Part shown: positions 14,580 to 59,764 of the stretch, piece by piece | Layout: the number at the start of each line of letters is the position of its first letter | How positions within the stretch are numbered: position 1 is the stretch's first letter | Assembly: GCF_023055435.1 (NCBI RefSeq) | Contig: NW_025964383.1 | Location: 10,416,001 to 10,480,000, forward strand | Origin: Haliotis rufescens | Lineage: Eukaryota | Length of the DNA: 64,000 nucleotides | Direction: 5' to 3' | The notes under the pieces: model-generated | What the model saw: only the letters and a program-made list of their open reading frames with translations | Database searches by the model: none | What the model was told of the DNA's origin: nothing | Position numbers and translations under genes: made by a program

Positions 14580-17085
14580 GTTAGCCTTCGAGGAGTACAC
14601 ACATCTGATAGCCTTCAAAGAGGACACACATCTGGTAGCCTTCGGTGAAACCACAATTTGATAGCCTTCGGTGAGGTTTGTTGTTTAACGCCGCATTCAG
14701 CAATATTCCAGCTACATGATGGCTGTCTGTAAATGATCGAGTCTGGACCAGACAATCCAGTGATTAATATCATGATCATCGATCTACGCAGTTGGGATAC
14801 GATGACATGCATCAACCACGCGATCCCGTTAGTCGCCTCTCAAGACAAGCACAGTCGTCTTTTACGGCACGCACGGGTTGCTGAAGACCTATTCTACCCC
14901 GGATCTCCACGGGTCCCTTCGGTGTGGACACACGTGTGAAACCCTTCGGAAGGGATACACATCTGGTAGCCTTTGCTGAGAACACACATCCGAAAACCTT
15001 CAATGAGAGCACATATTCGATAGATTTCGGTGAGGTCTCAAATCTGATAGCCTACGGTGAGATAACACATCTGGTATCCTTCGGGGAAAACTGACATCTG
15101 GTAGCCTTCGGTGAGGAAACATATCTGATAGCCTTCGCTGAGAACACATATCTGGTAGCCTTCGCTGAGAACACACAACCGAAAACCTTCAGTGAGAGCC
15201 CATATTAGAAAGACTTCGGTGAGGTCACACATCTGGTAGCATTCGCTGAGAACACACATCTGGCATCCTCCGATGAAAACACACATCTGGTATCCTTTAA
15301 TGAGAACACACATCTGGTAGCCTTCGCTGAGAACACACATCTGGTAGCCTTCACTGAGAACACACGTCTGGTAGCCTTCGATGAAAACACGATCTGATAG
15401 CCTTTGGTGAGGTTTGTTGTTTAATGCCGCACTCAGCAATATTCCAGCTATATGATGGCTGTCTGTAAATGATCGAGTCTGGACCAGATATCCCAGTGAT
15501 TAATATCATGATCAACGACCTACGCAGTTGGGATACGATGACATGCATCAACAAAGTTCGCGAGCCTGACTACCCGATCCCGTTAGTCGCCTCTCAGGAC
15601 AAGCACAGTCGTCTTTTACGGCACGCACGGGTTGCTGAAGACCTATTCTACTCCGGATCTCCACGGGTCCCTTCGGTGTTGACACACGTGTGAAAGCCTT
15701 CGGAAGGGATACACATCTGGTAGCCTTCGCTGAGAACACACATCCGAAAACCTTCAATGAGAGCACATTTTCGATAGACTTCGGTGAGTTATCAGATGTG
15801 ATAGCCTTCAGTGAGATAACACATCTGGTATCCTTCGGGGAAAACACACATCTGGTAGCCTTCGGTGAGGACACATATCTGATAGCCTTCGCTGAGAACA
15901 CATATCTGGTAGCCTTCGCTGAGAACACACATACGAAAACCTTCAGTGAGAGCCAATATTAGAAAGACTTCAGTGAGGTCACACATCTGGTAGCCTTTGC
16001 TGAGAACACACATCAGGTATCCTCCAGTGAAAACAAACATCTGGTATCCTCCAATGAGAACACACATCTGGTAGCCTTCGCTGAGAACACACATCTGGTA
16101 GCCTTCACTGAGAACACACATCTGGTAGCCTTCGCTGAGAACACACATCTGGTAGCCTTCGCTGAGAACACACATCTGGTAACCTTCACTGTGAACACAC
16201 ATCTGGTAGCCTTCGCTGAGAACACACATCTGGTAGGCTTCGCTGAGAACACACATCTGATAGCCTTCGGTAGGGACACACATCTAACCGCCTTCGGTTG
16301 AGACACACATCTGGTAGCCTTCACTGAAGACACACATCTGGTAGCCTTCGGTGGGCACACACATCTTATCGCCTTCCGTGGGACACACATCTGATAGCCT
16401 TTGGTAGGGACACAAATCCGAAAACCTTCAATGAGAACACACATTCGATAGACTTCAGTGAGGTCACACATCTGATAGCCTTCGGTTGGACACACATCTG
16501 ATTGCCTTCGATGATAACCCACATCCGAAAACCTCCAGTGAGAGCACACATTCGATAGACTTCAGTGAGGTCACACATCTGATAGCCTTCGGTGAGAACA
16601 CACATCTGGTAGCCTTCGGTAAGGACACACATCTGATAGCCTACGGTGAGATAACACATCTGGTATCCTTCGCTGAGAACACTCAACTGGTATCCTTCGC
16701 TGAGAACACACATCTGATAGCCTTCGGTGAAAACACACATCTGGTAGCCTTCGGTGAATTTACACATCTCATAGCCTTCTTTATCTGATAACCTTAGTTG
16801 ACACACATGCGACACACGTCTGATAGCCTTCGGTGAGGATACACTTCTGATAGCCTTCGGTGATAACACACATCCGAAAACCTCCAGTAAGAGCACACAT
16901 CTGATCGCCTTCAGTGAGAACACACATCTGATAGCTTTCAGTGAGAACACACATACGATAGCTTTCAGTGAGAACACACATCCGATAGCCGTCGGTGTGC
17001 AGACACATCTGATAACATTAGTTGACACACATGCGACAGCATTCGATGAAAATACACGCCTGGTAGCCTTCGGTGAAGACTTCAA
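14580..17085 (+). repeat. 27-bp minisatellite (acacacatctggtagccttcgctgaga)n with two embedded SINEs
   Basis: Direct reading. It generates the repetitive EGYQMCVLS and KATRCVFSA ORFs. Confidence 0.95.
14676..14916 (-). mobile_element. SINE-like family 2 (head gacccgtgaagatccggggtagaatagg); further copies at 15412-15670 and 43592-43852
   Basis: Dispersed ~250-bp repeat that shares the gctggaatattgct..cggcgttaaa 3' end with family 1. Confidence 0.85.
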
Positions 17086-17799
17086 AACAATCAATGACAG
17101 AAACAATATTCCGTCGTTGGCAGCGGGTGTTTACCTTACAATTCGGCTTTATTAATGGTGGCCAAACACGCGCTCTACCACAGAACAGTGTTAGCATGAG
17201 TGCTCTAGAGTTACTTCCCCTCCACTGTAAAGCGATTTAGGCATAACTCGCCTGCGTTGTAGAACTAATTACATGAACTAAATTATACGCTACATTACAA
17301 CACAATTCAGTTGTCACACGGGGAGGTAAGTTGAAATGGGGTTTAACGTCGCCCAGTCATTATTTTCGTTATTATAGTTATCATTGTGTCTGCTGGGGAA
17401 GGCGGTGGGTTAGATCCCCGGCCGCGTCATACCTAAGTTCTTGTTTTTACCCTACCTGGCGCTCGGCATTAAATGGGTACAACAAGGACTGGTATGCTCG
17501 GAGTCAGTATACTGTGTCTAAATGTGGTATTCATGGTAAACTGTGTCATGGTATCTCAGTGGGTTGGCGCTATAAATCGGCATTAGTCATGTGTATGCAC
17601 GTCGCTATATAAGTGCAATAATCTTGAATGCTATGTTAAACCCCATTTCCCATCCCCTATGCCATGATGTCTAATGCCGGTTTTATAGTTTTAGCCTAAT
17701 AAAATACCATGCAGTTTAGCAAGGATACCTCACTCAAAAACTTAACACTGCCTCAAAGCCGACCAGTCCTTCTTTACCCCCATAATGCAGAGGACCAGG

Positions 17800-18390
17800 A
17801 AGAAACGTGAAGAAGGATATGAGCCCGTCTTCTTAGACGAGACATGGGTAAATGCGTCACACACAGCCAGCAGTCAGTGGGTACCCAGTGGTGACTGAAA
17901 GGAGTCTGGTAGACAGTTATCAATGGGAAAGGGTGAAAGACTCATAGTTCTCCATGCTGGTTCTGCTAGTCAGGGTTTTCTCCGAGACTGTGACCTCGTC
18001 TTTAGAGCCAAGGCCAAAGACACCAGGGACTACCACACAGAAATGAACGGCAATGTATTTCTGGAGTGGGTGAAAGATAAATTAGTCCCTGCTTTGCCTA
18101 CCAAGTCTCTCATTGTCATGGACAATACACCGTATCATAGTGTGCAGGATCCAGAAAGCAAGACTCCAACCTCTAATAACCGTAAAGGAGACGTGGGGTT
18201 ATTTGGCTGCAATGGAGGAACATACCTTTCCTTCTCTATGAAATCATCAAAACTATGAAACCTGTCCCCGTGTATAAAGTTGACAGTTAGATCAAGGGTC
18301 AGGGTCACGCTGTCTTACGACTGCCACCTTATCACTGCGACCTGAATCCAATCGAGTTGGTATGGGGCATCGTCAAGGGTGACGTTTGAC
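17800..18390 (+). mobile_element. Degenerate IS630/Tc1/mariner-superfamily DDE transposase fragment
   Basis: Motifs PVFLDETWVN, GKGERLIVLHAG, DYHTEMN, VMDNTPYHS and VLRLPPYHCDLNPIELVWG, with stops and frameshifts. Confidence 0.85.
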
Positions 18391-18889
18391 AATCGAACAC
18401 AACGTAACGTGTAACGGGTAACAGTAGATAGAGCCACGTTATTGGTCACGAGGTGGACTACGGCCAGCAACAGTCCAACCTATAATAGTGGCAGTCGGTT
18501 CAGGCACCAGCAGTTCCGACGACGAGATCTATGAGATTATATGAGCGAGTCAGATTGCGATTGAAATTATCATGAGACGGCCCCTCTAACGCTCTGTCAT
18601 TTCCCCTACCACAGAACGTGCAGTGCATGCGTGCTTGTGCTGTGCCTTCAACGGTTTGTCCCCCCTTCGTGTCATGTACACATTTCTATACAAAATTACA
18701 TGGTAGTTTCTTAAAGAACTTCATCCGTCATGGGTCTTAAAATAAACAAAATTCAGATTTTGTTGGGTACATGGTATTCATGGTCAAGTACCGTATTGAT
18801 GTTTCATACACTTTTCTGGATTTCGAGTTATTTGGCAATTCATCGTTCTCATTTGGAGTCAAACGGACTGTACATGATACCCTCCTTGT

Positions 18890-19300
18890 CAGCCTCTTTG
18901 CGTGTGTCCTCTTCTACCTTGGCACCATATCTGCAACGTGGCATGGCGCCGGGTGAGAATAAACTGGATGATGTGAGGTATACATAGGGCATTTCTGAAC
19001 ATGAGGTCCTTTATAAATTGATCAGTGTTACAGTTCAAAAGAGATGCCTCATAACGAATGGAATAAAGGAAATCGCAAAAACCTTCATGTTCTTTTTGTT
19101 TTCTGTCTATCAGGTCATTCTTGCGGTCTATAACCTGAATAGACGTGGGGCCATACCATTGCACAAAAAGATTGTTGAAGCTCAGGCCATGTCATGTTGT
19201 CCTTGCATACCAAATTAAAGCAGTTTTTGATAAATATAGGGGGAAAACGTAAATAATTTCTTCACTGGTGTAATTTTGAATTGACGTAAATTTCTGAAAT
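18890..19300 (-). mobile_element. Probable Ty3/Gypsy gag (capsid) relic
   Basis: Frameshifted translation FPLYLSKTALIWY..TWPELQQSF..YGP..IDRKQKEHEGFCDFLYSIRYEA resembles the retrotransposon gag pattern (A..W..TW.EL...F..Q..E...DF). Confidence 0.45.
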
Positions 19301-21166
19301 CTACCCAGGCATGAGGGTGCAGAGCGGGCATCATATCCGTCGAACAAAGGCATCGGGAGGGTTATGAAGCTGACGCGAGATGGGGACGGGGGTGGTCAGC
19401 GGTTGAAGAGAGGCACGGACAGAGAGAACAACAACGGCCCTCACAATGGAATATATATATACTCCCTGTTTATACCTATACCCTGCCAAACTGCCTACGA
19501 TACTTGGCTTAATCGTCCGGTCACCGGAGGGGAACATTCCGAGTATTGACCGATTTCCGGCAGATGACCTTGTCCGAATCCCTCTTGGTCTGGCAGGTGC
19601 CTGGGGGGTCACTGGTGGGCTGCCGGGAGATGTGTCACGGATCCATTACCGACGGGGGCGTGGGCCACTGGACGCCGCAAGAAAATAACTCCGAGTTATT
19701 ACCTTCCGATGTGTCCCCCGGGTCTTCCCGATGGCAAAAACATGGCCAATGCTCACAGATGATCGTCCGGAACCCTGTCAGGTATGCCTCAATTGTGCCG
19801 ATTTTCAGTCTTTTCAGCATCGTAAACTAATATTCCCGGTATCGGTGGATATGTGACTCGGGCATAAGTCGATCTGTATCTGTATCATTTCAGCATTGAT
19901 GGCGACCCATACTTTGAACACTGTAGTAACTGAAACTCTACATGTTGTATAACGTACATGTCATCACCGAAAAATGCATATCAACAAAGGTTAATAAGAT
20001 TTGAGATATTCTAACAATATTTGTTCAAAGGTAAAAAGTAAAAAATCCTATACCGCTATACAAAACTATGCAGCTTGACAGATTAGGACATTTACGTCTG
20101 TGCAAGTTTCAGCCTCGAACGAGAATGCGATCCTAAGATTCGAATTCATGAAATATAAAACACGAGTTGCGTCCCTTGAACCACACACTTTTCAGCAGCA
20201 ACGTTGATAACAGTGAGCTGACGAATGTGATCTAACACATGACATTGTCCGACACCTGATATATTGCATTTCAGAGAATCGAGATCAAAAGAATAGATGA
20301 CATTACCATGTTGCTGCCGTCCCTATATTTGAAATTAATCAAGTCCATGTTATCGTGAAAATAAAGCAAATATGTCATCAATACACCTGTTGGTTGAGCA
20401 CAAAAACCAAATTAATCACGGTAAAGCAGGAATTGCCTCCAATGATTTAGCCATTTCGTGAAAGCTTCAGAAGTAAATGTATCATCTTTTTTAATTTAAC
20501 ACTGGCGAATGTCATTTCGAATATTGTTTCATTGGATATATATGTTTTGGAGATGGTACACGTGATCTTAGATTCGTTCCATCAAATACAGACATGACCG
20601 ATTCTTACGTCCATTTGTATGGTGGGAGAAACAGACACGTCAAGTAACGGAGTGTAGTGTGAAGCGGTAGGGAAGAGAATGACACGGGGGATACTGCAAG
20701 TAAAACATGTATTTTCATACAAATCATTGATCTTGACAGACAAAAACAAATCTGTCGCCAAAAGTTGAGATCATATGTTCCTGATGAAACCCTTAATGGA
20801 GTCACGAAAATACAGTGAAGTTAACCTCAAAATTGAAATTGGTTACCTGACATGAATACTTGATTAAAACAGTTGATATATTCCAACAACTGATCATGAC
20901 GAATCAGTTACTCAGCAGGATTTCCAGGGCAGAACATGACCTCAATACACTGTCTTCATCGCGCGTTTGTTATCAGAGGCGAATTATGAGGATCGGGTGG
21001 TTACATTGAACGACTGGGTGTCATCGCTCCCGCTACATGTAGCATAGACTGAGCTAGAGTGGTCTTGATATAGACAGAATATTACAGACAGGTATACATT
21101 TCCTCACCATTTCGGCACAGTCATAGGGAATACAGCCTTACTATCATTCAAGTTCCTCACCACAGA

Positions 21167-21312
21167 NNNNNNNNNNNNNNNNNNNNNNNNNNNNNNNNNN
21201 NNNNNNNNNNNNNNNNNNNNNNNNNNNNNNNNNNNNNNNNNNNNNNNNNNNNNNNNNNNNNNNNNNNNNNNNNNNNNNNNNNNNNNNNNNNNNNNNNNNN
21301 NNNNNNNNNNNN
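21167..21312. other. Assembly gap (others at 37648-37800, 45612-45828 and 47970-48115)
   Basis: Runs of N. Confidence 1.
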
Positions 21313-21324
21313 TCATTGTCACCA

Positions 21325-24300
21325 TCACGACAGGGCCTTAACAATCACTGCTTTCTTCTCCTCTGTCATGTTGATGTCGCTGCCCACTACAAGTGTCATG
21401 CTGACAGAGACATACTCTGGGTTATACACCCCGAACATCGGCCACAGTGGCTGACTAGAGTCTACATTGTCTAACGTCGATATCACTTTGTTCTCCTTCA
21501 CATCAATGAAGACAATCTTCTTCCTGGCGTCATCATAGACACCACCGTAATGTAGCGTGTGTGATGCCCCTGCTGTGTTGGGGAGAGTGTCAGGCAGACA
21601 CAGCACACGCTTGTCCTCCTTACATGTCTTTCTGCATATCCCGCCGTGTGTAGGACAGTGGGAGACCGCCATGCTGCAGGAGCTGGGTTCTCCACTGATA
21701 GAATGATACACGTCCCTCTGCTCCTCCCTGCATACACCCACCTCGAGGATGAGGAGGCCTTCTGTTAGTGGTTTGTTCAGACTGACCCTGGATTTCATCT
21801 CCCAGTACTGGGGACAGCCAGCCCGGGGGAGGGGGGCAGCGCCACATGTGCCACTGTACTTCTTCAGTCTCCCCTCCCCTGCAGGTATGGTGTCCGACTT
21901 CCTGTTGACCAGGTCTCCTTCTGTGTTGATGTGGACGCTGTCGAGCTTGACTCTGTCTTTGTCATATTTTACATCTATACCTAAAAAATATGAATAAAGT
22001 AAACTTTCCAACACAAATACATTGTATCTCTGTCGCATCATCATGTCTTACCTAATTTCCTGATTTGCCCTTTTAAACACCAAGTTCAAATTATCCGAAA
22101 AGACTGATACCATGTTTTCTTTAATTGGTAATATCTGAAACTGTCAGCTTTGACTCGAGAATACATAAGTTTTGAGTTTGTTTGTTTTTTTCAATTTAGA
22201 AAGTTTTCATTCCACGGCTTTTTTGTAGTTAACCCGCCATGTTATGACTGGAATACGCGTCAAAACGTTGTGACAACCAGCTTAGCCACGGAAATATTAG
22301 TATGTAAACCGAACTTCTAAATCATATAGTTATAGTCGTTGAATAAAGATTGTCTTGATACATCTAGAGTAATGATTTATTAGAAACTGCAGGTGTGCTA
22401 ACAATAAATGGAATATATTTGGAGTAGGGGTCACGGTCTGACATCTAGGCACTCACAATAAATGTGTATTTAGTAAGTCGATTGGGCTGGTTGAACTGGT
22501 TTATATTTGCTGAATGATTGGAAATGAGAGTTTGCAGTATGGAGTATGTAAGGTCATGATGAATGAGTCCAACAAACACTGTAGTTCAAACCCCATAGAG
22601 TATAAGCAATGTTACTGATGGTGTTATCAAAAACGAGGGACATGTGAGTGTGAAGCAACTGCAAATTCGTCAAAGCCTGTTATAATATGTCAATGAGTGA
22701 AATTTTGTGTGCACACACTTTAGCACAAGTAAACAACAATATTAGGGTGAGTGAGTGAGTTTGGTTTAACGCCGCTTTTACCAGTATTCCAGTTACATCT
22801 CGGCGTGTCAGCTTAATGTTGGAGGAAAGCCCGAAGTGATGCAGGTTCCAGACGATTACCACCTTGGAGAAACCCACGAGCACGGGTATGGTGCTGACAA
22901 ACCTAGAGACATAATCGGGGCGAACCGGGATTCGAACCCACAATCAAAGGTTTCTGGTGTGCCCAATGGACGTAATTCTGCACAACGAATCGCAGCGCCT
23001 TAGACGACTGGGCCAGCCGTGCCCCCTATCAATATATGATCTGCACAGTCAGGCACTTCACGCACTGCATATAGCTAATCTCATTCTACTCGTCACATCA
23101 GACAAGTATGGATTTTGTAGAGTCTATCAGTTCAATTTATCAACGTTGTCATAACACTCTCCCTGGTGCAAACATACTTACAGAGAAGAGGAACAGGAAA
23201 AGGGGCATCTGAGGCAGGCAGAAGGTGGACAGCTACACTGGACACGCACTCTACAAAACAAAATGTCAAATGTATACTATTGCCATATGGTATTGTGGTA
23301 TAATGAACTGTTCAAGCCGACTTTAACAGCATTTCACTTACATCCAGGTGTGTCAGCTTAAAGTTGAGTGAAGCTAAGGAGAGGACTTGGTGTAGATTGT
23401 GGACGTTTGCCACTATGCACAGGCAACAATAATGGGTATAATCAAATCATACTTTGAGATTCGATCCCCCAATGGGCATACCCTTTCACAGCATAGGTGC
23501 CCAACTCTGAAGAGTGCACAGTGAATTACAGAACACGAGCTCATTTGGCAAAATATGTTATTTGCTCACATCTCTTTCATTTTTATAACTATGTTTGTCA
23601 TACTAGCTCAAATTCGTGTTTGCCATGTAACCAATATTGAAATGATGCTCACCTAAAGACTTCATTGTTGACGACAGCTGTTCGATCTGTTGATCGCGAT
23701 TCTTTATAACCTTAAATCATAATTAATAAGAATAATGTATACAATGTACATCACTCGCATGTAATGAGGAAGTCTTGGTAAGGTAGCCTTTTGGTTAACT
23801 GGTTACCTAATCACACCAAAAACGAGAGAGGTCTAATCCTCTTAATTCCACCATATCGTATGATACTTTATATATCTCAAAATAGATTTATACTTTGAAC
23901 TTGTGGTTTTCTGGTTTTAGAACGGATTGAGTAAGGTGAATTACATTTATATTGAACATTTCAAGTTATATAGCAGGTGTCAACAAACTGTACCTGCAGA
24001 TGTAACATGTTATCAGCTTCAAGCTTATTTATCTTCGTTTTCATAGCATTCATAGTAGATCCCTCTGTAATAACAAACACATGTAATATATGAGTAAATG
24101 GAATATTTAACAATTGCAACGCGCATAAAAATAAGGTACACATGCATTACACAGGACACCTACCTACCATATAGGTCATGTGACGTTCATATAACACAAT
24201 ACTCGCGCGTGATGGAAATGACAACGGGGACATTTAGATTGAAATGAACATTAAATGTGAGTTCTATGCATCACTTCCGGTCTCGTAAATCTAGACTTAG

Positions 24301-26874
24301 TACTTTATTTTTGTTCAAATCGAAAAAAACTAAACTTGTAATGGCTCGTTATTTTTTTTGCCTATGGATTTATGAGGTGTGGAACATCGGAGCGTAAGAG
24401 AAATCTGAAAGGTAGGTGGTTCCTGAGTTGTCCATTTCTGCGTGACGTCACAAACCTTTGATCAACAGAGATCTGGGGCATTACATCTCGGCTGCCTTTG
24501 AAGATCTAATCAATCAATAGACTAATTAATTAACATCCAATTCAATCAGCTTGTCATAACTGTTTATTCCTTTTTATCCTTATACTTACTGTACATTTGG
24601 CTTTATTACCCGTGTGTTTTATTACCTTGTGCTATGTGTTATTCTTACTGTACATTTGGCTCCACCCAATTACATGTGTGCTACTTATTATTTGTTACCT
24701 GTTCTCAATGTTAATCTGCTGCTTATCAGAACATGACCTGTGTCTATACCTCTCATTCACTTGGTTGTTGTCACTCCAGAATCAACATCGAAACGTCGCT
24801 ATTTGTAATAAACTAAAAAATGTTCACTTCCACGAAGGGGGACAACGTTAACAAAAGACATGTTCACCTATTTCGAGGAATTTTTTAAAATGTTCAGACG
24901 TCTCGGACAAGTTCACTGCCTTCTTACCTCTCATTGTGCGAGCAAACAATCCCCATGGAGAAGACAATGATATTGTCAGACCCAGCCCTCCACGCGCTAC
25001 TATTGATAAAATGACAGTCTGAACGACTTCGCTCTTAAGTATTTACTTAAGTACTTATGTTAAGTACTTACTGATATGTTTATTGAAAACCCTAAACCCA
25101 ACAACTACTACTAACCCTAATTCAGTTATAACAAAGGCCCAAGGGTTAAATATGTCGGTATAAAGAACCCAAGGGCTAAAGAAATTAACTGAAGCGGCAG
25201 GAAAATGGCGAATGCTTTGGTTGCCAAGGAAGTAGTTCGCGCATAACAGAATATGGCGGAAGGTGTCCGGTATCAAACATTCTTTCCAAAAATAATACAT
25301 AGAATATGACTGAAAATGGTAAGCTTCATGTAAAGCTAGCTATAGTGATGCTGATGTGTATGTCTGAGTTTCTCCCAGCAGACTTGGTTACCTAGATTAC
25401 AAGTAGATCATCTCCGGGAACAGAGGCAACTAGCAACGAGCTCTATAATGATTGGGAATGCTCATGGACACTGAATGGGGTAGCCTTGTGGTTAAAACAT
25501 CGGCAGCTCACGCCATAGATCCGGGTTCGATTCCCTTCATGGGTTCAATGTGTGAAGCACATTTGCTGTTGTACCCCGCAGTGACGGCACTGGAATATTG
25601 CTAAAAGCAGAGTAAAACCACATTCACTCACTCAGGGACACTGACATTATTCGTATTTAACTCAACATTCCTAATAAACTGTATGCAGTGTAATGGAACA
25701 GCTCCAGGTACAGGATACTAAACACTTAGCTTTTCTTTAGCTCGTTACAATATCAATTTATTGTTTCATCATCCAAGAAATAATCAATACTGTACCTACC
25801 TGGGTTACTTTCTGACTGAGGGTCCATGGGTACGTAGTACCCTCCAAAGGAAGAAATCAATTGCTTCAGGTCTGTAAAGTCCTGTCTAGATAGAGTGACT
25901 GCAGCCTCTGTATCTCTCACTTGGGGAAGCTCAGTTGTAATACATTCATTGGTTCTGGATACTACTGTCTTTCTGGCCCTGAAGAGTGCGTCAACACTAG
26001 ACATAGCAGCGAATTTCTGACAATACCCAAGTGCTGTGTCACATTTGGCTTCCTCCATTTCCAACTTGGATAGCCGTGAATTATTCATATCATATACAGC
26101 TCTGAAACTTTGATCCAGTTGTAGAGAAACCCCTTCTTCTCGCTGTTTTAAAGTAGTTCTCAGGTCAGAAAATGTATGCTTTAAGAACTCCTTCCCTTCC
26201 TCCTCTTTCCCCTCTGACATCTTGACAACTTCTAGTACCTTGTCCCTGATGGCTCTGATTGTTTCTATCTTCTTAGAGAGGCCTTTCTGTCCTTCCTCCA
26301 GTACCGTCTCCTTCAGATGTTGACATGCTGTGGCTATGTCATTCACCTTGCAGTCGCTATGATTCTCCTTACATTTGAAACAGATTCTTTGCTCACATGT
26401 TTCGTCATAGAGCTGTAGAGGATGATCAGCATGTTCTGTGCAGTAGACAGTCTTAGGAGTAGGTTCTCCGTCAGAAGACGTCAAGTTTTCCAATGGCACA
26501 ACTGCATGTGACCTTGTTATCTTCATATCCTCATGGCTGGCCTGACAGTGCTCACACAACAAGGCTTCACATTCATCACACCAGGACATGGCTTGGTTGC
26601 CGTCATCTTTGTTGGTACAAAGCACAGCGGAACCATCGTTTTCAGCAGTTTGGTGGAAGATATCTTTGATGACAACGACATCGGGAGGAAAATCCGTTTG
26701 TTCTTTATCAAATGTTTCCTGGCAGATGTCACACGTCAGTGTATCAAGGGTGTCAGTGTCTAGGCATGTCTGACGCACCAAGTGGAGATATGGTAGGAGG
26801 TGTGGATCAGGCCCACCATACTTGTACGAGGTGTGTCACACTCTACACTGGGGTAGCTTCACTGCAGTCGCCAT
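21325..26874 (-). pseudogene. Divergent TRIM-like gene C with an in-frame TGA at codon 13 and a degenerate RING (pseudogene or RING-less TRIM)
   Basis: Exons 26874-25800, 24064-23994, 23710-23653, 23250-23182 and 21980-21325 join in frame (1929 nt) with GT-AG sites. The N-terminus reads MATAVKLPQCRV*HTSYKYGGPDPHLLPYLHLVRQTC. B-boxes, coiled coil and SPRY-like exon (QYWEM..LEVGV..LWPMFG) are intact. A possible 5' UTR exon donor lies at 28652. Confidence 0.75.
25477..25633 (+). mobile_element. SINE family 1, diverged, in an intron of gene C
   Basis: ggggtagccttgtggttaaa..ccgggttcgattccc..cactcactca tail. Confidence 0.8.
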
Positions 26875-29689
26875 TGTCCTGTTTAGTGTTATGATGTCCA
26901 AGTTGTGCACAGTTCTGGAAGATTCGAAGTATTGGAAATTATACATGCAAATAAAAAATAGAAAAATATACATTGAGATAACATAATGTCTGAGATATCA
27001 GATGACAACGTGCGCCCTGATTGAAAGTTTTTAAAAAAAAATATGACTTAGAAATACGATGTATCTCATCCATGTCGGAAACAATTTTTTTATAATGGAT
27101 TATATTGTAGACAGCTTATTCTTGATGTTGAACAGCTTTGCCACATCAGCGGACAATACGTGTACTTGTATTGTATATATGAGGTCTTGGTTACGGGTAT
27201 GACCTTTACATAGATTAATGCATGGTATGTTCACATAATAATTAGTAGACCGCCAACGTGGTCTAGTTTTTGAACATCTGCCCGGAGAGCGAAAAGGCGG
27301 GGATTTGATCCCCGGCCACGTCATACCAAAAAGACTTGTTGTTACCCTGCCTGTGGCCCGGAATTGAGGGCCGCTCGGAGTATAGTGTGCCTGAGTGGGG
27401 TAAACATGTTAAACTGCGACATGGTGTTTCAGTGGGCTATCACTATAAAATCGGCATTTGTCCGGACCACAGCAGCCACACGCACACTTGCATGCACGTC
27501 GCTATATAAGTACAATAATCTTGAGTGAGTGAGGTAATGCTTTACGTCACATCGGCAATATTTCAGCCATATCGTGACGATCACAATAATCTTGAACGCG
27601 ACGTTGAACCCTATTCCATCTTGCCTCAAATATAATTAGTATCAGCCGAACAAAATAAAAAATATCATGTACTTCAGATACCAACAAATTGTATACGACA
27701 GTGCAGCAATAAATACATACAACTGTACAACATCATTATCTTAACCACAACATACATTTCACATGTATTGACATCGGAAGATTGTCATCTGTGCTCATGT
27801 TTCATTCTATTATTATGTTTTAATTTTGTTTTTCTCATGTCTGTTGACATAATTCTATGTGATGCATTTAAAGGATGACGTTTTCATGGAAACTGCGGAA
27901 TGCTAAAATAATATTAATGCCGATTAGTAAAAAAAAACCAGAATAATAAAATTTAATATTAAATAAATAATGTACTTCAGGCCATCACTGATAAGACATG
28001 CATAACAAGATATATCAAATTCGCACTGTCGCCAATTCAACGTAACTGCTCACGTACGTAGCTACTACGCGTCCAAATCGCCAATTATATATATAATTAG
28101 TTTCAAATATATTGCTCAATTTGACCATTCGTCTCAAATAAAGAAATAATAATGGCTAGTCAAACTAATATCAAACACACCCCTGTATATTCACATTTAC
28201 ATGTCAATAAATGGCCTTTCAAGCACTGTAATGCTGAACTATCCGTGTATTCGATCGATCAGATAACAATAAGCTGTTCATTCTGCACGGGAGGTATGAT
28301 ATCTGTTTGCAAAAGGAAGATACGCGCGAGGTCGTCATAATACTCATGAACAGCGGCATAGAAAAGGCGAGATTGTATCAGCAGACCACATAGGGCAGGC
28401 AAGTGTGTCGTGTCCCAGAACATGTCGGCGCTTGAAAACGAAAGTAGCACTGTTTAGTTGTCACCTCACACTAATGTATAGACTTTAGACGAGTGTTTCA
28501 TGATTCAAGTTAAGATATGCTTAAGATATGCAATGTAACAGTTGAAATGCATTCTTGTGATTTAGTTAAACACATGTAATTTCTCATACAGAACAATATT
28601 ATCTTATTGATTATATTGTTAGGCTATCAGAGACGATCCACAACGCACCTACCTGGCACAGACCACGTCATGTTTGTGTAGCTAGGTCACTTCCGGGTTG
28701 AGGTGCAAAGGTGAATGCTATTTTAATACACGTATACGATAAGAGGGGAGTTGGACGTGAGCTGACATGGACTTAAACGTCGTCTTCATGAAACGTTATT
28801 GCGTTCAACCATAAGTTGGCTGGCCATGTCTGAGATCTGCCTTCCTAATCTGTCCCGTAGCCATACATGTCTATGAATGCATTGCCTTTTGCCTCAAGTA
28901 GTACTTCTCATTGACCGTATAAATTTCCTCAGAAAATAGAATCTCAATATATTAAGTTCGTACTTAATGGATGTAGAATGCACATTTCAGTATCTTTTGA
29001 TAAAGTCTTTGATATATATTATCTGTAGTGTCAGCAATGAGTAAACGTGTTATGTTTTCGTTCAATGACTGTGAAGCCCATTTCTGGTGTCCCCCGTCGT
29101 GATATTGCTGGAATATTGCCAAAAGCGGCGTAAAACCACACTCATTCACTTACGCTTTCATTGAAGTTACAGTATGGATTTTTTGCGTGTAGGCTAGTGA
29201 CGGGGATGACATTTTATCCAATGTTTTACGAACAAGAAACTGCCAAAACAGATCTAACATTAAATATCCAAACAACAAATAGCTATGAATAGCTAAATTA
29301 CATAAATTGGTCAAATACACAGACAATACATAATTGATTTATGAATGACAAAAAAATGTTTGCATTGTTAAGGATACCACTTTGGAATTTTATTGTGATT
29401 TTATTATATTTTTACCGTGCAATTGCGAGTGACAGCAAAATATTATTTTGTATTTCTAATCAATTTCTAATGACATTGTCAAATACTTCCATGCCATCTG
29501 ATTATTTATGCATATAGTAAAAGTAAAAACATTTTGGCTCATTAAATATATTAAAATACGTAAAAAAAAATAAAGAGAGCAAAATTAATCATGTATTCTT
29601 GTGTTTTATATAGATGTTTTTTTCACAATCTTAATATATATGTCTTTCTTCTGCGAAAGCGTAGTCGGGCCAGGGTGAATTATTTTTGT

Positions 29690-43549: not shown

Positions 43550-45012
43550 TTAGCCTTCGGTGAAAACACGATCTGATAGCCTTCGGTGAGGTTTGTTGTT
43601 TAACGCTTTACTCAGCAATATTCCAGCTACATGTACATGACGGCTGTCTGTAAATAATCGAGTCTGGACCAGACAATCCAGTGATTAATATTATGATCAT
43701 CGATCTACGCAGTTGGGATCGATGGCATGCATCAACCATGTCAGCGAGCCTGACCGTCCGATCCCGTTAGTCGCCTCTCACGACAAGCATAGTCGTCTTT
43801 TACGGCAAGCATGGGTTGCTGAAGACCTATTCTACCTCGGATCTCCACGGGTCCATTCGGTGAGGAGACACGTGTGAAAGCCTTCGGTGAGAACACACAT
43901 CCGAAAACCTTCAGTTAGAACACATATTCGACAGACTTCGGTGAGGTCACAGATGTGATAGCCTTCGGTGAGATAACACATCTGGTAGCCTTCGGTGAAA
44001 ACACACATCTAGGAGCCTTCGCTGAGAACACACATCTGATAGCCTTCGCTGAGAACACACATCTGATAGCCTTGGCTGAGAACACACAACTGGTAGCCTT
44101 GGCTGAGAACACACATCTGGTAGCCTTCGCTGAGAACACACATCTGGTAGCCTTCGTTGAGGACACACATCTGGTAGCCTTCGCTGAGGACTAACATCTG
44201 GTAGCCTTCGCTGAGATAACACATCTGGTAGCCTTCGCTGAGAACACACATCTGGTAGCCTTCGGTGAGGACACACATCTGGTAGCCTTCGCTGAGAACA
44301 CACATCTGGTTGCCTTCGGTGAGGACACACATCTGGTAATCTTCGCTGAGACAAACATATTCGACAGACTTCGGTGAGGTCACATATCTGGTAGCCTTCG
44401 GTGAGATTCCACATCTTGTATCCTTCGGTGAGAACACAAATCTAATAGCCTTCGGTGAGGAAACACATCTGGTAGCCTTCGCTGAGATCACACAACTGGT
44501 AGCCTTCGCTTAGAACACACATCTGATAGCCTACGCTGAGAACTCAGTGAGAACACGCATTCGATAGCCGTCGGTGTGAACACACATCTGATAACCTTAG
44601 TTGACACACATGCGACAGCTTTCGGTAAAAACATACGTCGGATAGTCTTCGGTGATAACACACATCCGAAAACCTCCAGTGAGGTCACACATTCTATAGA
44701 CTTAGGTGAGGTCACACATCTGATCGCCTTCCGTGGAACACACATCCGATAGCCTTCAGTGAGAACACACATCCGATAGCCTTCAGTGAGAACACACATC
44801 CGATAGCCTTCAGTGAGAACACACATCCGATAGCCTTCAGTGAGAACACACATCCGGTAGCCTTCAGTGAGAACACACATCCGAAAGCCTTTGGTGAGAA
44901 CACACATCCGATAGCCTTCAGTGAGAACACACATCCGATAGCCTTCAGTGAGAACACACATCCGATAGCCTTTGGTGAGGATACAGATCTGATAGCCTTT
45001 GGTGAGGACTTC
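43550..45012 (+). repeat. Paralogous 27-bp minisatellite with one embedded SINE
   Basis: Same unit as 14580-17085, shorter array. Confidence 0.95.
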
Positions 45013-46509
45013 AAGGAACCGAATACCTTTGGCGATACACATGTATTGATATTATTTCAAAACAATCAATGATAGAAACAATGTTCCGTCGTTGGCAGCG
45101 GATGTTTACCTTACAATTCGGTTTGTTACGCATGTGAAACACAAAGACGCTCTGGCTTTATTAAAGGTTAGGCTAAACATGCGCTCTACCGCAGAACAGT
45201 GTTAGCATGAGTGCATTAGAGTTATTTCCCCTCTACTGTAAAGCGGTTTAGGAATAACTCGTTTGCGTTGTAGAACAAATAACATGAACTAAATTATACG
45301 CTACATGACAACACAATTCAGTTGCCACACGGGGAGGTAGGTTGAAATGGGGAGTAACGTCGCCCAGTCATCATTATCGTTATTATCGTTATTATTGTTA
45401 TTATTGCGTCTGCTGGGGAAGGCCGCGGGTTCGATCTCCGGCCGCGCCATACCTAAGTACTTGTTTTTACCCTCCCTGGCGCTCGGCATTACATTGGTAC
45501 AACAAGGACTGGTCGGCTCGGAGTCAGTATACTGTGTCTAAATGAGTATTCATGGTAAACTGTGTCATGATATCTCAGTGGGTTAGCACTATAAATCGGC
45601 ATTAGTCTGCANNNNNNNNNNNNNNNNNNNNNNNNNNNNNNNNNNNNNNNNNNNNNNNNNNNNNNNNNNNNNNNNNNNNNNNNNNNNNNNNNNNNNNNNN
45701 NNNNNNNNNNNNNNNNNNNNNNNNNNNNNNNNNNNNNNNNNNNNNNNNNNNNNNNNNNNNNNNNNNNNNNNNNNNNNNNNNNNNNNNNNNNNNNNNNNNN
45801 NNNNNNNNNNNNNNNNNNNNNNNNNNNNAAGTGCAATAATTTTGTATGCTAGGTTAAACCCCATTTTCCATCACCTATGCCTCGATGTCTAATGTCGGTT
45901 TTAAAGTGCTAGCCTACTGAAATACCATGCAGTCTAGCAAGGATACCTCACTCAAAAACTTAACAATGACCCCGAGCCATAATGCCGAGGGCCAGGCAGG
46001 GTAACAACAAATAACATCATATAACTTATTTTGGTATAATTCTACCAGGGGATTGCACCATTGACCTTCCACTCTCCGGACAGATGTTCTATCCACTAGA
46101 CCACGGAGGCGGTCCTCTCGGACAGGGGGTAATGGTACTGGATGCGGAGCCGGTTCAGTTCGCCCGGGCTGGAAGGTCACGAACCGTAATCAACAGAGAA
46201 AGTATCTCCCAGTGTGCTCGGGATTCAGTGCAAGATTACAGAAACCAGCACCAAATGACCTCGTACATAAATTCGCATCTGTAACGAGCCCACCGTCAGT
46301 TCATCCCGGTGCGTGATGACGTGGGTGTTCCGCAATTGCCAAACACAATGTCTATTTTATATTTACCAACAAATGCCACAGTGTTGCTTTAAATAATCCC
46401 CATTCGGCAGCATTGTAGCACTTCAAGTACATTTGTTCCCAAATGAACCTTTATAAAAATATACATAACATGTACTGAGTATCTTTGTTGCTAAATGCCA
46501 GCATGCAAC

Positions 46510-47200
46510 AGCACCACACCACCCCACCACAACACCATCACGCGGCACCACACAACCACTCCACCAAGCCACCACACCACTACACCACCACACCGCCGAT
46601 CCACCACACCTCCAATCCACCACACCATCACGCCACCACGCCACCACGCCACCATGCCACCACGCCACCACGCCACCACGCCACTACGCCACCACACCAC
46701 TTCACCACCACACCGCCAATCCACCACACCTCAAATCCACCACACAATCACGCCACGACACAACCACGCCACCACACCACTACGCGGAACTGCGCAACCA
46801 CTCCACCAAGCCACCACATCGCAACACCACCACACCGCCACACCGCCACACCACCACACATTCACACCATCACGCTACCTGACAACCACTCCACCAAGCC
46901 ACCACACCGCCACACCACCATACAACCACTCCACCAAGCCATCACACCACCACGCCACCACACCGCCACACCGCCACACCGCCACACCGCCACATCACCA
47001 CACAACCACTCCATCAAGCCACCACACCGTCACACCACCACACCGCCACACCATCACGCTACAACACAACCACTCAACCAAGCCACCACACCCCACACCC
47101 CCACACCCCCACACCGCCACACCACCACACCACCAAGCAACCACACCGCCACACCACCACGCCATCACACCATCAAGCCACCACACCACCACACCACAAT
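46510..47200 (+). repeat. C/A-rich degenerate (CACCACAC/CACCACGC)n low-complexity array
   Basis: Direct reading. It gives His/Thr/Pro-rich spurious ORFs. Confidence 0.9.
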
Positions 47201-47540
47201 CACTCTCCGAGGAGTATCTCACATTGTTTACTTCGTATGTGTTTGTGTTTAAGTTCTAGTCGTTTTGAATAATTAACTAGTTCATCATTCATAATGTAAC
47301 ACCTGACTCCAAGCTAGGGCAGAGGAACCAGTACATTCACGGAAACCGGATACTTCGGCACACAGTAAGGGATTGACTCACACACCTACTGACGTTCAGT
47401 CAGCATTACATGCTCCCCATCAAGCACGGCTTGTTCAACTAGACACGTATTGTTTATGAATTTGACATCGTTTGCAATGATACTCTTCATTAAGCTGATC
47501 AACTATTCGTATGATACATAAACCAATCATCTGGGCTAAA

Positions 47541-50435: not shown

Positions 50436-50700
50436 GACCCGTGACGATACGGGGTAGAATAGGTCACTCTTCAGCAACCCATGCTTGCCGTAAAAGGCGA
50501 CTATGCTTGTCGTAAAAGGCGACTGACGGGATCGGGTGGTCAGGCTCGCTGACTTTTTGATGCATGTCATCGATCCCAATAGCGTGGGTTGATGTTCATG
50601 ATGTAAATCATTGAATTGTCTGGTCCAGATTCGATTATTCACAGACCGCCGTCATATAGCTGGAAAATTGCGGCGTTAAAAAACAACCAACCAAACAACC
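50436..50700 (+). mobile_element. SINE-like family 2
   Basis: gacccgtgacgatacggggtagaatagg...aaacaaccaacc tail. Confidence 0.85.
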
Positions 50701-51920
50701 AACATTGATTCCTACATTGAATCCAACATTGAATCCTACATCGATGTCAACAGTGAATCCTACATCGATGCCAACATTGATTCCTATATTGGATCCTACA
50801 TCGATTCCTACATTTATTCCCCCATTCAATCCTACATTCAATCCTACATTGGATCCTACACTGTACATTGATTCCTACAATTATTCATACATTGAATCCT
50901 ACATTGATTCCTACATCGATGCCAACATTGATTCCTACATCGATGCCAACATTGATTCATACATGGATTCCTACAGTGGATTCTACATTGATTCCTACTT
51001 GGATGTCAACATTGATTTCCTCATTGATTCCCACATCCTTTCCAACACTGATTCCCTCATTGATTCCTACATTGGATCCTACATTGATTCCTACATTGAT
51101 TCCTACATTGATTCTTACATTGATTCCTACTTTGGATCTTACATTGATTCCTACATTAATTCCTACATTAATTCCTACATTGATTCCTACATTGATTCCC
51201 ACATTGATTCCTACATTGGATCCTACATTGATTCCTACATTGATTCCTACATTGATTCTTACATTGATTCCTACATTGGATCTTACATTGATTCCTACAT
51301 TAATTCCTACATTAATTCCTACATTGATTCCTACATTGATTCCTGCATTGATTCCTACATCGATGTCGACATTGATTCCTACATCGATGTCAACATTCAT
51401 TTCCTCATTGATTCCCACATCCTTTCCTACACTGATTCCCACATTGATTCCTACATTGGATCCTACATTGATTCCTACATTGGATCCTACATTGAATCCT
51501 ACATTGATTCCTACATTGATTGCTACATTGATTCCCACATTGATTCCTACATTGGATCCTACATTGATTCCTACATTGATTCCTACATTGATTCCCACAT
51601 TGATTCCTACATTGGATCCTACATTGATTCCTACATTGATTCCTACATTGATTGCTACATTGATTCTCACATTGATTCCTACATTGGATCCTACATTGAT
51701 TCCTACATTGATTCCCACATTGATTCCCACATTGATTCCTACATTGATTCCTACATTGATTGCTACATTGATTCCTACATTGATTCCCACATTGATTCCT
51801 ACATTGATTCCTACATTGATTCCTACATTGATTCCCACATTGATTCCTACATTGGATCCTACATTGATTCCTACATTGATTCCCACATTGATTCCTACAT
51901 TGGATCCTACATTGATTCCT
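50700..51920 (+). repeat. 12-bp minisatellite (attgattcctac)n
   Basis: About 100 units. Degenerate units also lie at 50145-50195 and 50360-50435, interrupted by SINEs. Confidence 0.97.
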
Positions 51921-52495
51921 AAAACTATGCCAAAATCGACTCCTTCAATCGATCGAAAGGGAGAGTTATTCTGAGCAACATCACTCGTAGATCTTTCAGT
52001 GATGTGTCATCAGTCAGGCAAAGAAAAACACAGATAGACCCCGCACTGCTAATGATACTACCAAAGATATTGCAACTTAATTGTCATACATGGAAGTAGC
52101 TGAAATAGCTGTCACACATATCCTTTATTTGCCATAACATATGATACACACTGACGTACGTTGTGTTGACAACAAAGAAACGATCTGCTGCGCATCACTG
52201 AAGATAATAGCAGGAGACCCATCACAAGGCATGGAGAAGAGTTCCTTGTATGATTATACAATGTTCCGTGATTAAAATTGTATATTTCCATAGTGTTCCT
52301 CACGCAACGTTGACGTCAGCGTCAATGAAGCATGGATCATTTACAATGTAGTATCGAGAATAGGTGTAACCTTTCATATAAACATCCCGCTCTGTTGGAA
52401 TAAAAACATCATTATAAGAGACAAAATGGAAAGGTTAACCTAAAAAATAAACTGTTACTAAGAATAGTTTTGTCGTAAGAAATGTTGTAGTTATT

Positions 52496-53455
52496 GGTTT
52501 ATTGGCAAACGTGGAGAAGTACAAGAACCTGGCTTCATTGGCAAACGGTTCCTCGGGAGGGAGAAAAAACAGGAACCTGACTTCATTGGCAAACGGTTCC
52601 GCAGGAGGGAGAAAGTACAATAATCTGGCTTCATTGGCAAACGGTTCCGCAGGAGGGCGAAAGTACAATAATCTGGCTTCATTGGCAAACGGTTCCGCAG
52701 GAGGGAGAAAGTACAATAATCTGGCTTCATTGGCAAACGGTTCCGCAGGAGGGAGAAAGTACAATAATCTGGCTTCATTGGCAAACGGTTCCGCAGGAGG
52801 GAGAAAGTACAATAATCTGGCTTCATTGGCAAACGGTTCCGCAGGAGGGAGAAAGTACAATAATCTGGCTTCATTGGCAAGCGTTTCCTCGGCAGAGAGA
52901 AAAAAACAGGAACCTGACTTCATTGGCAAACGGTTCCGCAGGAGGGAGAAAGTACAATAATCTGGCTTCATTGGCAAACGGTTCCACAGGAGGGAGAAAG
53001 TACAATAATCTGGCTTCATTGGCAAGCGTTTCCTCGGCAGAGAGAAAAAACAGGAACCTGACTTCATTGGCAAACGGTTCCGCAGGAAGGAGAAAGTACA
53101 ATAATCTGGCTTCATTGGCAAACGGTTCCGCAGGAGGGAGAAAGTACAATAATCTGGCTTCATTGGCAAACGGTTCCTCGGGACGGAGAAAGTACAATGA
53201 CCTGGCTTCATTGGCAAGCGTTTCCTCAGGAGGGAGAAAGTACAATGACCTGGCTTCATTGGCAAACGGTTCCTCGGGACGGAGAAAGTACAATGACCTG
53301 GCTTCATTGGCAAACGGTGCCTCGGGAGGGAGAAAGTAAAATAATCTGGCTTCATTGGCAAACGGTTCCTCGGGAGGGAGAAAGTAAAATCATCTGGCTT
53401 CATTTGCATACGGTTCCTCAGGAGGGAGAAAGTAAAAGAACCTGGCTTCAATGGC
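52496..53455 (+). repeat. 48-bp minisatellite (ctggcttcattggcaaacggttccgcaggagggagaaagtacaataat)n
   Basis: About 20 units. One + frame reads (P/S)GFIGKRFRRREKVQ*. Confidence 0.95.
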
Positions 53456-53925
53456 CCCGGGGTTCAAGCTTGTTAATTACCACGACCCTAAATGCGTTGG
53501 AACGTACATAGACAGGTCACACTCTCCAACACTCTATCATGATCAATCTCCTCTTGTAAATTGTTCTCTTGGCACTATGCCATGTGTAGTACACAGGCTT
53601 TGCCCACATATAACCATGCATCGCATGCACGTTGCATTCATGTAAACAGGTTAGTGTGTATCACTGACAGTTTAGGCTCAATTGGGGTAGGCTTGTTTGC
53701 GAAATTTTATGCCATGCTAAAGGGGAGAGAAAAAGTCGGTGTCACCGTCACTCACCATATAATATTCCCTACTACCAAGCCCTCACTGTAATGCAAAAGC
53801 CCTCAATGAAACCACAGATTGTCCACAGGTGGAGACATATCCAATCTCACAAGACCTCCTTTTCAATTTAAATGGAATTGAATGTCTCTGTCAAAATTAT
53901 ATAGTTTTAAAGATGAGGCGTTAGT

Positions 53926-57979: not shown

Positions 57980-59595
57980 ATCCCCATCCAATATCCCACA
58001 TCCAATATCCCATATTCCTCATCCAATATACCATATTCCTCATCCAATATCCCATATTCATCATCCAATATCCCACATTCCACATCCAATATCCCATATT
58101 CCTCATCCAATATCCCTCATCCCACATCCAATATCCCATATTCCTCATCCAATATCCCATATTCCTCATCCAGTATCCCATATTCCTCATCCAATATCCC
58201 TAATCCCACATCCAATATCCCATATTCCTCATCCAATATCCCTAATCCCACATCCAATATCCCATATTCCTCATCCAGTATCCCATATTCTTCATCTAAT
58301 ATCCCTAATCCCACATCCAATATCCCATATTCCTCATCCAATATCCCTAATCCCACATCCAATATCCCATATTCCTCATCCAATATCCCATATTCCTCAT
58401 CCAGTATCCCATATTCTTCATCTAAATCCCTAATCCCACATCCAATATCCCATATTCCTCATCCAATATCCCTAATCCCACATCCAATATCCCATATTCC
58501 TCATCCAGTATCCAATATTCTTCATCTAATATCCCTAATCCCACATCCAATATCCCATATTCCTCATCCAATATCCCTTATCCCACATCCATTATCCCAT
58601 ATTCCTCATCCAGTATCCCATATTCTTCATCTAATATCCCTAATCCCACATCCAATATCCCATATTCCTCATCCAATATCCCTAATCCAACATCCAATAT
58701 CCCATATTCCTCATCCAATATCCCATATTCCTCATCCAGTATCCCATATTCTTCATCTAATATCCCTAATCCCACATCCAATATCCCATATTCCTCATCC
58801 AATATCCCTAATCCAACATCCAATATCCCATATTCCTCATCCAATATCCCATATTCCTCATCCAGTATCCCATATTCTTCATCAAATATTCCTAATCCCA
58901 CATCCAATATCCCATATTCCTCATCCAATATCCCTAATCCAACATCCAATATCCCATATTCCTCATCCAATATCCCATATTCCTCATCCAATATCCCATA
59001 TTCTTCATCTAATATCCCTAATCCCACATCCAATATCCCATATTCCTCATCCAATATCCCATATTCCTCATCCAATATATCATATTCCTCATCCAGTATC
59101 CCATATTCTTCATCTAATATCCCTACTCCCACATCCAATACCCCATATACCTCATCCAATATCCCATATTCCTCATCCAATATCCCATATTCCTCATCCA
59201 ATATCCCTAATCCCACATCCAATATCCCATATTCCACATCCAATATCCCTAATCCCACATCCAATATCCCATATTCCACATCCAATATCCCATATTCCTC
59301 ATCCAATATCCCTAATCCCACTTCCAATATCCCATATTCCTCATCCAATATCCCATATTCCACATCCAATATCCCATATTCCTCATCCAATATCCCATAT
59401 TCCACATCCAATATCCCACATTCCTCATCCAATTCCCTCATCTCACATCCAATATCCCATATTCCACATCCAATATCCCATATTCCTCATCCAATATCCC
59501 ATATTCCTCATCCAATATCCCTAATCCCACATCCGATATCCCATATTCCACATCCAATATCCCATATTCCACATCCAATATCTCATATTCCCCAT
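57980..59595 (+). repeat. 21-bp minisatellite (catccaatatcccatattcct)n with ccctaatccca variants
   Basis: About 75 units with higher-order variant patterning. Confidence 0.97.
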
Positions 59596-59764
59596 CCTGC
59601 CCACAACGAACCGTCGCTACAATGTATGTAATATCATCCTTTGACATTTAGTCTTTCTTAAGTTACTTCCGTTCTTCGTCTGATATATACTACACAAAAT
59701 AGGTTAAGGATCACCCGATTCTTTCACACTGCTATAGTAACATCTGTCATACCATGCCTCATCA

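Follow-up and report, generated by a model that had tools for sequence, protein, structure and literature searches.

A TRIM-Like Gene with a Broken RING in a Haliotis rufescens Tandem Array Is Probably a Young Pseudogene

Gene C, a TRIM-like gene of Haliotis rufescens whose RING has lost three zinc ligands, one of them to a premature TGA, is probably a null allele or a pseudogene of recent origin, in a TRIM-B30.2 array that evolves by birth and death. Since its private changes show a nearly neutral ratio of nonsynonymous to synonymous substitutions, its sister copies are intact, and the first in-frame ATG past the stop (Met96) cuts into B-box 1 and lies behind five competing ATGs, we regard an ordinary young pseudogene beside intact sisters as likely, rather than a purpose-built decoy. 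Among the three readings offered by the original prediction (a RING-less decoy made by re-initiation, a young pseudogene and a selenoprotein), the pseudogene is the best fit.

Organization of Gene C

Six-frame translation and self-comparison of the window, i.e., the whole 64-kb stretch of DNA that was analyzed, revealed a minus-strand tandem array of TRIM-like genes (Table 1). Gene C consists of five exons with GT-AG junctions (1929 nt, 642 codons), the TGA being its sole internal stop, which agrees with the five-exon gene originally described. Pfam PF00643 matched B-box 1 followed by B-box 2 in two stretches (29.5 bits at a cut-off of 24.1), and all listed B-box ligands are present in the DNA. 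The coiled coil was placed by its position and by a weak Pfam TRIM_CC match that was obtained only on the paralogue, gene A (E 0.0013, under the cut-off). No Pfam match was returned for the gene C RING, and its relatives P0012 and P0015 match RING below the curated cut-off.

The last exon gave no direct Pfam match for SPRY and a single chance-level match (E 0.28) in a search of PDB sequences. A structure model of this exon (pLDDT 96.4, from a 57-sequence alignment) had the PRY-SPRY domain of TRIM65 as its best Foldseek match (E 2.6e-8), and the PRY-SPRY domains of TRIM21, MID1 and TRIM25 were also matched (E about 3e-8 to 6e-8). PF00622 was matched in 13 of the 57 aligned relatives, and Atlas features of the exon point to SPRY clusters. 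Judging by the modelled fold, the last exon is a C-terminal B30.2/PRY-SPRY domain; the SPRY exon of the original prediction thus stands on its fold and not on a Pfam match.

Gene C itself lacks the eight-ligand C3HC4 RING that defines a TRIM (RBCC) protein. Since its sister copies have the full RING, the ancestor of gene C was a full TRIM, and the combination that gene C presents, a disabling TGA with the five-exon structure kept, is that of an unprocessed pseudogene.

Table 1. Positions of gene C, its lesions and neighboring elements in the window
Feature	Position	Strand	Remarks
Array genes, in order, by ATG	B2 42689, A2 34512, C 26874, B1 13739, A1 5755	-	
Coding exon 1	25800..26874	-	codons 1-358; RING, B-box 1, B-box 2, coiled coil
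Exon 2	23994..24064	-	splice seen in sister-copy contigs
Exon 3	23653..23710	-	exon model
Exon 4	23182..23250	-	exon model
Exon 5	21325..21980	-	divergent putative B30.2/PRY-SPRY domain and stop
Degenerate C3HC4 RING	26722..26847	-	codons 10-51; 5 of 8 ligands remain
B-box 1	26506..26619	-	codons 86-123; ligands intact in DNA; PF00643 at 86-128
B-box 2	26350..26442	-	codons 145-175; ligands intact
Putative coiled-coil region	25840..26334	-	approximately codons 181-345
TGA at ligand Cys13	26836..26838	-	next base C (UGA-C context)
TAT, Cys29 to Tyr	26788..26790	-	from sequence, relatives and contigs
TTG, Ser32 to Leu	26779..26781	-	invariant non-ligand residue
CGT, Cys34 to Arg	26773..26775	-	from sequence, relatives and contigs
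Second patch of private changes	26146..26241	-	five nonsynonymous, codons 212-243
Ancestral ATG to premature TGA	26836..26874	-	12-codon frame, ORF reading
Two short out-of-frame ORFs	26753..26819	-	ATG 26819, 19 codons; ATG 26767, 4 codons
Out-of-frame ORF across Met96	26523..26681	-	ATGs 26681, 26636, 26606
Met96, first in-frame ATG past stop	26587..26589	-	start of RefSeq 547-aa model
Decayed DDE transposase	17700-18450	+	stops and frameshifts; by its motifs presumably of Tc1/mariner-IS630 type
Long minisatellite/simple-repeat tracts	14900-17130, 43850-45070, 46470-47270, 50660-53500, 57900-59630		some at the edge of a duplicated unit
Dispersed repeats of 90-280 bp	25478-25634, 22748-23027, 29060-29153, others		in introns and spacers; likely SINEs

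Lesions in the RING

The RING ligands of gene C read C-stop-Y-H-R-C-C-C versus C-C-C-H-C-C-C-C in its relatives. The change of three ligand cysteine codons (to TGA, TAT and CGT, at Cys13, Cys29 and Cys34) is confirmed; the original description of the damage had missed a fourth change at an invariant residue, S32L. The RING carries five changes at the amino acid level and one synonymous change. The statement that the rest of the gene is undamaged holds for stops and frame; it does not hold for otherwise invariant columns, nine of which carry further private changes outside the RING, compared to 7-14 in five intact close copies.

In simulations that placed 15-20 random substitutions in exon 1, the probability that at least three ligands are struck was 0.0013-0.003 for the RING alone, 0.004-0.010 for any one of the three zinc domains and 0.016 when conditioned on the local patch. 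Ligand loss also differs between the RING (three of eight) and the B-boxes (none of 16; Fisher p 0.028). The clustering of cysteine losses was rightly called odd (p 0.004-0.016). Because gene C was singled out post hoc, in a very large scan and among dozens of family copies, the surprise is lessened, though not removed; chance does not comfortably account for the targeting of cysteines, which is the main unexplained point.

Relatives of Gene C

Genes A and B, to which gene C had originally been aligned, are only about 30% identical to it, and its close relatives (75-91% identical) are the proper comparators. These are two copies in H. cracherodii (90-91%), four H. rufescens models from two loci (LOC124127944 and LOC124127941; 87-89%) and one copy in H. 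rubra (75%). All seven proteins have a full eight-ligand RING, with Cys at codon 13. A RING loss conserved in orthologues, as expected of a functional RING-less TRIM, was looked for and was not found in any of the seven; the nearest H. cracherodii copy (91%) keeps its RING.

Among 87 family proteins examined, with gene C read through its TGA counted as one of them, 71 have all eight RING ligands and only gene C shows in-place point losses. Five belong to a CARD-bearing subfamily whose first cysteine pair cannot be aligned, four are models that begin inside or after the RING (one being the RefSeq model of gene C) and six have no N-terminal match. A search of the protein collection for short RING fragments gave no candidate, and a metagenome scan for DNA of the relatives gave 19 pattern matches, of which none was confirmed.

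The wider family of RING-B1-B2-CC-B30.2 proteins is large: 70 sequence clusters are found among the matches listed, all with the name Haliotis, and many members lie on one 49.5-Mb scaffold. We infer from these names that it is an independent mollusc expansion, and by analogy it resembles finTRIM. Its B30.2 domain is too divergent for Pfam and is the most variable part when close copies are compared, which differ at 22-50 of its roughly 217 residues. CARD-TRIM fusions with an altered first RING cysteine pair and CARD-B30.2 proteins without B-boxes also occur (P0022, P0218, P0222, P0225, P0026; P0021). In three other models, P0043 (H. rubra), P0237 (H. asinina) and P0006 (H. rubra), the start lies within or beyond the RING, or the sequence stops early in the coiled coil; these are possibly more broken copies.

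Setting in the Array

Duplicated blocks within the array are 93-97% identical by self-comparison. Between 2536 and 42689 (minus strand), the RING-B-box exons of A and B are widely divergent and their B30.2 last exons are nearly identical, a pattern suggestive of exon sharing or concerted evolution. The A-type last exon recurs twice more, in incomplete form, behind gene A1 (1404-2287), and in RefSeq XP_048247042.1 these extra copies are spliced in as a repeated C-terminus. An acceptor-like site at about 26914, 40 bases upstream of the gene C ATG, would imply an unseen noncoding first exon.

Private Changes and Selection

A change was taken as private when, in each run with cover at the site, all contigs there differed from the window. 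Among the 40 of 71 variant rows that could be used, private changes in exon 1 were 10 nonsynonymous and 3 synonymous, in line with the 844:230 expected of neutral sites (p 0.75, omega about 0.9). The other 27 variants listed, which are found among the other copies, were 11:16 (omega about 0.19; Fisher p 0.046 against 10:3). From Met96 on, the private changes were 7:1 and those in other copies 7:14 (p 0.014); without M263 and L105, which are common to a RefSeq relative, 5:1 remained (p 0.06). Compared to the A1/A2 and B1/B2 duplicates (17:16), the private ratio gave p 0.18, and compared to all controls p 0.067, or 0.04 with the TGA counted. The dN/dS check originally proposed thus has an outcome for exon 1 only (10:3, omega about 0.9), with p from 0.04 to 0.18 depending on the control. 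Exon 1 thus appears to have become free of constraint along its length, though the evidence is modest: the signal is small, and a ratio near 1 can also mask mixed selection.

Private changes occupy ca. 1.4% of exon 1 sites. Their density is 2.8% in codons 13-95 versus 1.0% afterwards (p 0.06), and 11 of the 15 private sites (the 13 changes above, the TGA and codon 43) fall into two 96-nt windows, one in the RING and one in the middle of the coiled coil (p 0.002). With two patches, the clustering is not peculiar to the RING. The patches may reflect mosaic exchange between copies, and the near identity of the last exons in genes A and B indicates that exchange of this sort occurs in the array.

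At 27 random substitutions, the coding sequence is expected to gain 0.8 stops, and the probability of exactly one is 0.37. All 16 splice bases would survive the private rate with a probability of 0.8, and no frameshift would be expected in 1.9 kb with a probability of 0.07-0.41, at indel rates that were assumed rather than measured. An otherwise intact gene fits a young lesion.

Sequencing Runs and Contigs

Of the words of exon 1, 0.36-0.45 were present in 20 of 24 runs among those listed and none had more; 69% of exon 1 31-mers avoid the private sites. Contigs from 4 of the 20 runs were compared over 25740-27050. Three cover the RING; the fourth, X13, has no cover there and proves nothing. 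At 26775, 26780, 26789 and 26791, all contig depth carried the intact-type letter in all three covering runs, and codons 29 and 34 read TGT in contigs of relatives in the same three; the Cys at codon 13 rests on proteins, the contig rows being 40 of the 71 variant rows. No contig with the gene C RING letters was found in the three covering runs, which possibly come from species other than H. rufescens and whose contigs drop minority paths. Parallel contigs of 94-127 nt do survive in the runs and a path through the RING patch would be about 105 nt, so that, with the assembler threshold presumed here, the absence is a weak hint only.

The exon 1-2 junction at 25800 was spliced in both RNA-type runs. 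These spliced contigs differ by one letter from the window and hence come from sister copies. Six word-matching runs were guessed to be RNA and none is RNA on record; a blank among them bears nothing on expression. In run X6, one contig skips 458 bases (26488-26945, i.e., the start codon, RING and B-box 1); being a single contig at a low likeness setting, it is possibly another 5′-deleted copy. A weak acceptor-like site at 26769, which could skip the stop in frame, is supported by no read.

Gene C from Met96 on corresponds to RefSeq XP_048247296.1 (LOC124128868, H. rufescens) over 547 of 547 residues. Since the RefSeq model of gene A1 matches the window-specific partial exons at 100%, RefSeq probably derives from this same assembly and gives no independent proof of the TGA.

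Start Codons Downstream of the Stop

The short upstream frame of the original prediction (ATG at 26874, 12 codons, TGA at 26838-26836) and its in-frame gccATG at 26589 were both recovered from the sequence; the latter has a purine at -3. Five out-of-frame ATGs lie between the stop and Met96, and none of them coincides with a private site among the variants listed. Met96 is ancestral, being found in 13 of the 31 intact relatives checked. Cys86, ten residues before it, is kept in all 31, and its counterpart in distant relatives opens a CxxC pair; together with the start of the Pfam match at 86, this pattern points to Cys86 as the first B-box 1 zinc ligand. A start at 26589 would therefore lose the first B-box 1 cysteine, and the 547-aa product matches the Pfam B-box only from profile position 16, under the cut-off. 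Once the stop is present, C29Y and C34R are not open to selection, so the selective loss of cysteines and re-initiation are not mutually reinforcing arguments.

Interpretation and Alternatives

As a young pseudogene, gene C would decay without selection, since intact sister copies likely do its job. Ribosomes would start at the ancestral ATG and halt after 12 codons, and those that resume scanning would mostly be caught by the five ATGs in other frames; the frame opened by three of these passes over Met96. Little in-frame protein would be made, and it would be devoid of the RING and of the beginning of B-box 1. The mRNA may also undergo nonsense-mediated decay; stops close to the AUG are reported to be able to evade it in mammalian cells (PMC3273812). 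Some 1.4% of private change in exon 1 would be too little for many further breaks, and the patches likely arose by gene conversion or unequal crossing-over that overwrote parts of the copy, in which case the excess of cysteine losses would be partly chance within one overwritten patch. Several observations speak against a pseudogene: the uneven ligand loss between the RING and the B-boxes (3/8 vs. 0/16), the lack of a frameshift, private changes outside the RING that are no more numerous than intact copies carry, a higher change density in codons 13-95, as relaxation of the leader only would predict, and the modelling of the locus as protein coding by RefSeq.

One can also imagine gene C as a newborn ligase-dead decoy in a finTRIM-like immune array of an invertebrate, a copy surprised while losing its RING, whose product, started at Met96 or made through the leaky UGA-C, tunes or poisons the 87-89% identical sister copies. 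We consider this unlikely, and the estimate counts only those cases of the two routes below in which a working product results. In the one route, improbable in our judgment, re-initiation or leaky scanning at Met96 would yield a protein of 547 aa that lacks the RING and retains B-box 2, the coiled coil, B30.2 and a part of B-box 1; it would pair with sister TRIMs by its coiled coil and dampen their ligase activity or compete for their targets. The first ORF has 12 codons, the purine at -3 is present, and, according to the portion of PMC6614817 at hand, ribosomes in mammalian cells can re-initiate efficiently past a short ORF; the frame is open and the splice sites are intact to the end, and changes are denser before Met96 (p 0.06). 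Excerpts of the literature add that fish TRIMs have undergone RING loss, for which selection was suggested (PMC3137616), that RING-less TRIMs were proposed to be regulators and that many TRIMs lack B-box 1 (both PMC2533329). However, five out-of-frame ATGs come first, Met96 is ancestral and cuts B-box 1, and the nonsynonymous excess continues downstream (7:1), where relaxation of the leader only predicts about 4.7 synonymous changes and 1 was seen (p 0.053). In addition, re-initiation is no reliable shield of mRNA from decay in the mammalian data of the available part of PMC10187673, and the targeting of Cys codons would be left unexplained. The re-initiation decoy of the original prediction bears no mark of selection, and genes A and B were rejected as its targets for their low identity to gene C (about 30%); if a decoy exists, its partners are likely the sister copies. 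In the other route, to which we also give little credence, C29Y, S32L and C34R came before the TGA and produced a full-length RING-dead partner, and the TGA later killed the copy or turned it down, in which case it would persist by read-through of a few percent at UGA-C. This order would account for the targeting of Cys (p 0.004-0.016) and for five amino-acid-level changes to one synonymous in the RING; in the parts of the papers that were accessible, no stop context leaks more than UGA-C (3-4% in mammalian cells; PMC4615788) and ligand mutants of E3 ligases can be dominant negatives (PMC7010608). Against it, the loss of one ligand presumably suffices to kill a RING in most cases, so that further losses gain little, no relative among the 87 proteins has a missense-only RING loss, no stable structure was detected downstream of the TGA (z -0.12), the next codon is CAC rather than a CUA or CGG motif, any read-through product would still be short of two RING ligands, and the order of mutations is unreadable from one haplotype.

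It is very unlikely that the TGA, or the patch as a whole, stems from faulty assembly or from copies collapsed into a chimera. The ceiling of 0.45 of words among the runs listed, the three covering runs without the gene C RING letters and the probable dependence of RefSeq on the same assembly would fit an error; yet there are only substitutions and no indel in 1929 nt, transitions and synonymous changes are included as in real divergence, and the runs may be from other species and their contigs rid of minority paths. Selenocysteine (CxxU), finally, has a negligible chance. The TGA does occupy a Cys position, but all seven close relatives have Cys there, two other ligands are gone, a search of 17500-27200 against Rfam was blank even with E up to 10, and a simple scan for a SECIS core found none in the 3.8 kb past the stop, a short N run there lying outside the scan; the skepticism first voiced about this reading was well placed.

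Comparison with Known Systems

As a pseudogene, gene C represents ordinary turnover of a TRIM cluster, and it carries a practical warning, namely that a copy truncated by a stop underlies the 547-aa RefSeq model of LOC124128868. Were the decoy reading true, it would be a rare snapshot of the origin of RING-less TRIM regulators, and one open to study in a single species. The surrounding Haliotis family, with its variable B30.2 and CARD fusions, may matter more than gene C itself. A literature search, with most subscription journals outside its reach, found no paper on this abalone locus or family, and in literature on RING-less dominant negatives nothing on abalone TRIMs was found. The RefSeq entry XP_048247296.1 is an automatic "uncharacterized protein" model, in which the broken RING is not mentioned.

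The would-be Met96 product, with a B-box, a coiled coil and a B30.2 domain but no RING, resembles RING-less TRIMs such as TRIM16; TRIM14 and TRIM29 are further examples. Theirs are old, conserved losses with a proper start, whereas the loss in gene C is private to one copy and its start would lie inside B-box 1 behind competing ATGs.

TRIM-B30.2 clusters of fish and primates turn over by duplication and loss, as far as the accessible text of PMC2657112, PMC3228819 and PMC2533329 goes. In the part of PMC3228819 that was available, pseudogenes account for 11 of the 31 young human TRIMs, and the young primate clusters on chromosomes 11 and 2 share segmental tandem duplication, gene conversion and a variable B30.2 with the abalone array; about one third of those genes are pseudogenes and one copy (G3) has a degenerate RING. 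The primate genes are of the RING-B2-CC-B30.2 type, whereas the abalone family keeps B-box 1.

The nearest case to gene C is zebrafish ftr52. As described in the excerpts of PMC3137616 and PMC2657112, ftr52 and the finTRIM pseudogenes also belong to an expanded TRIM family and have a premature stop in the RING first exon, with the rest in frame and spliceable, a single RBB exon and a single B30.2-type last exon. According to the available text of PMC3137616, ftr52, with its stop in the RING exon, gives a properly spliced transcript and is not called functional. Unlike gene C, it ends in RanBD-CypA, and it is transcribed and has the stop in all fish tested (PMC3137616, same portion), whereas gene C is known from sequence alone and has two further ligand losses.
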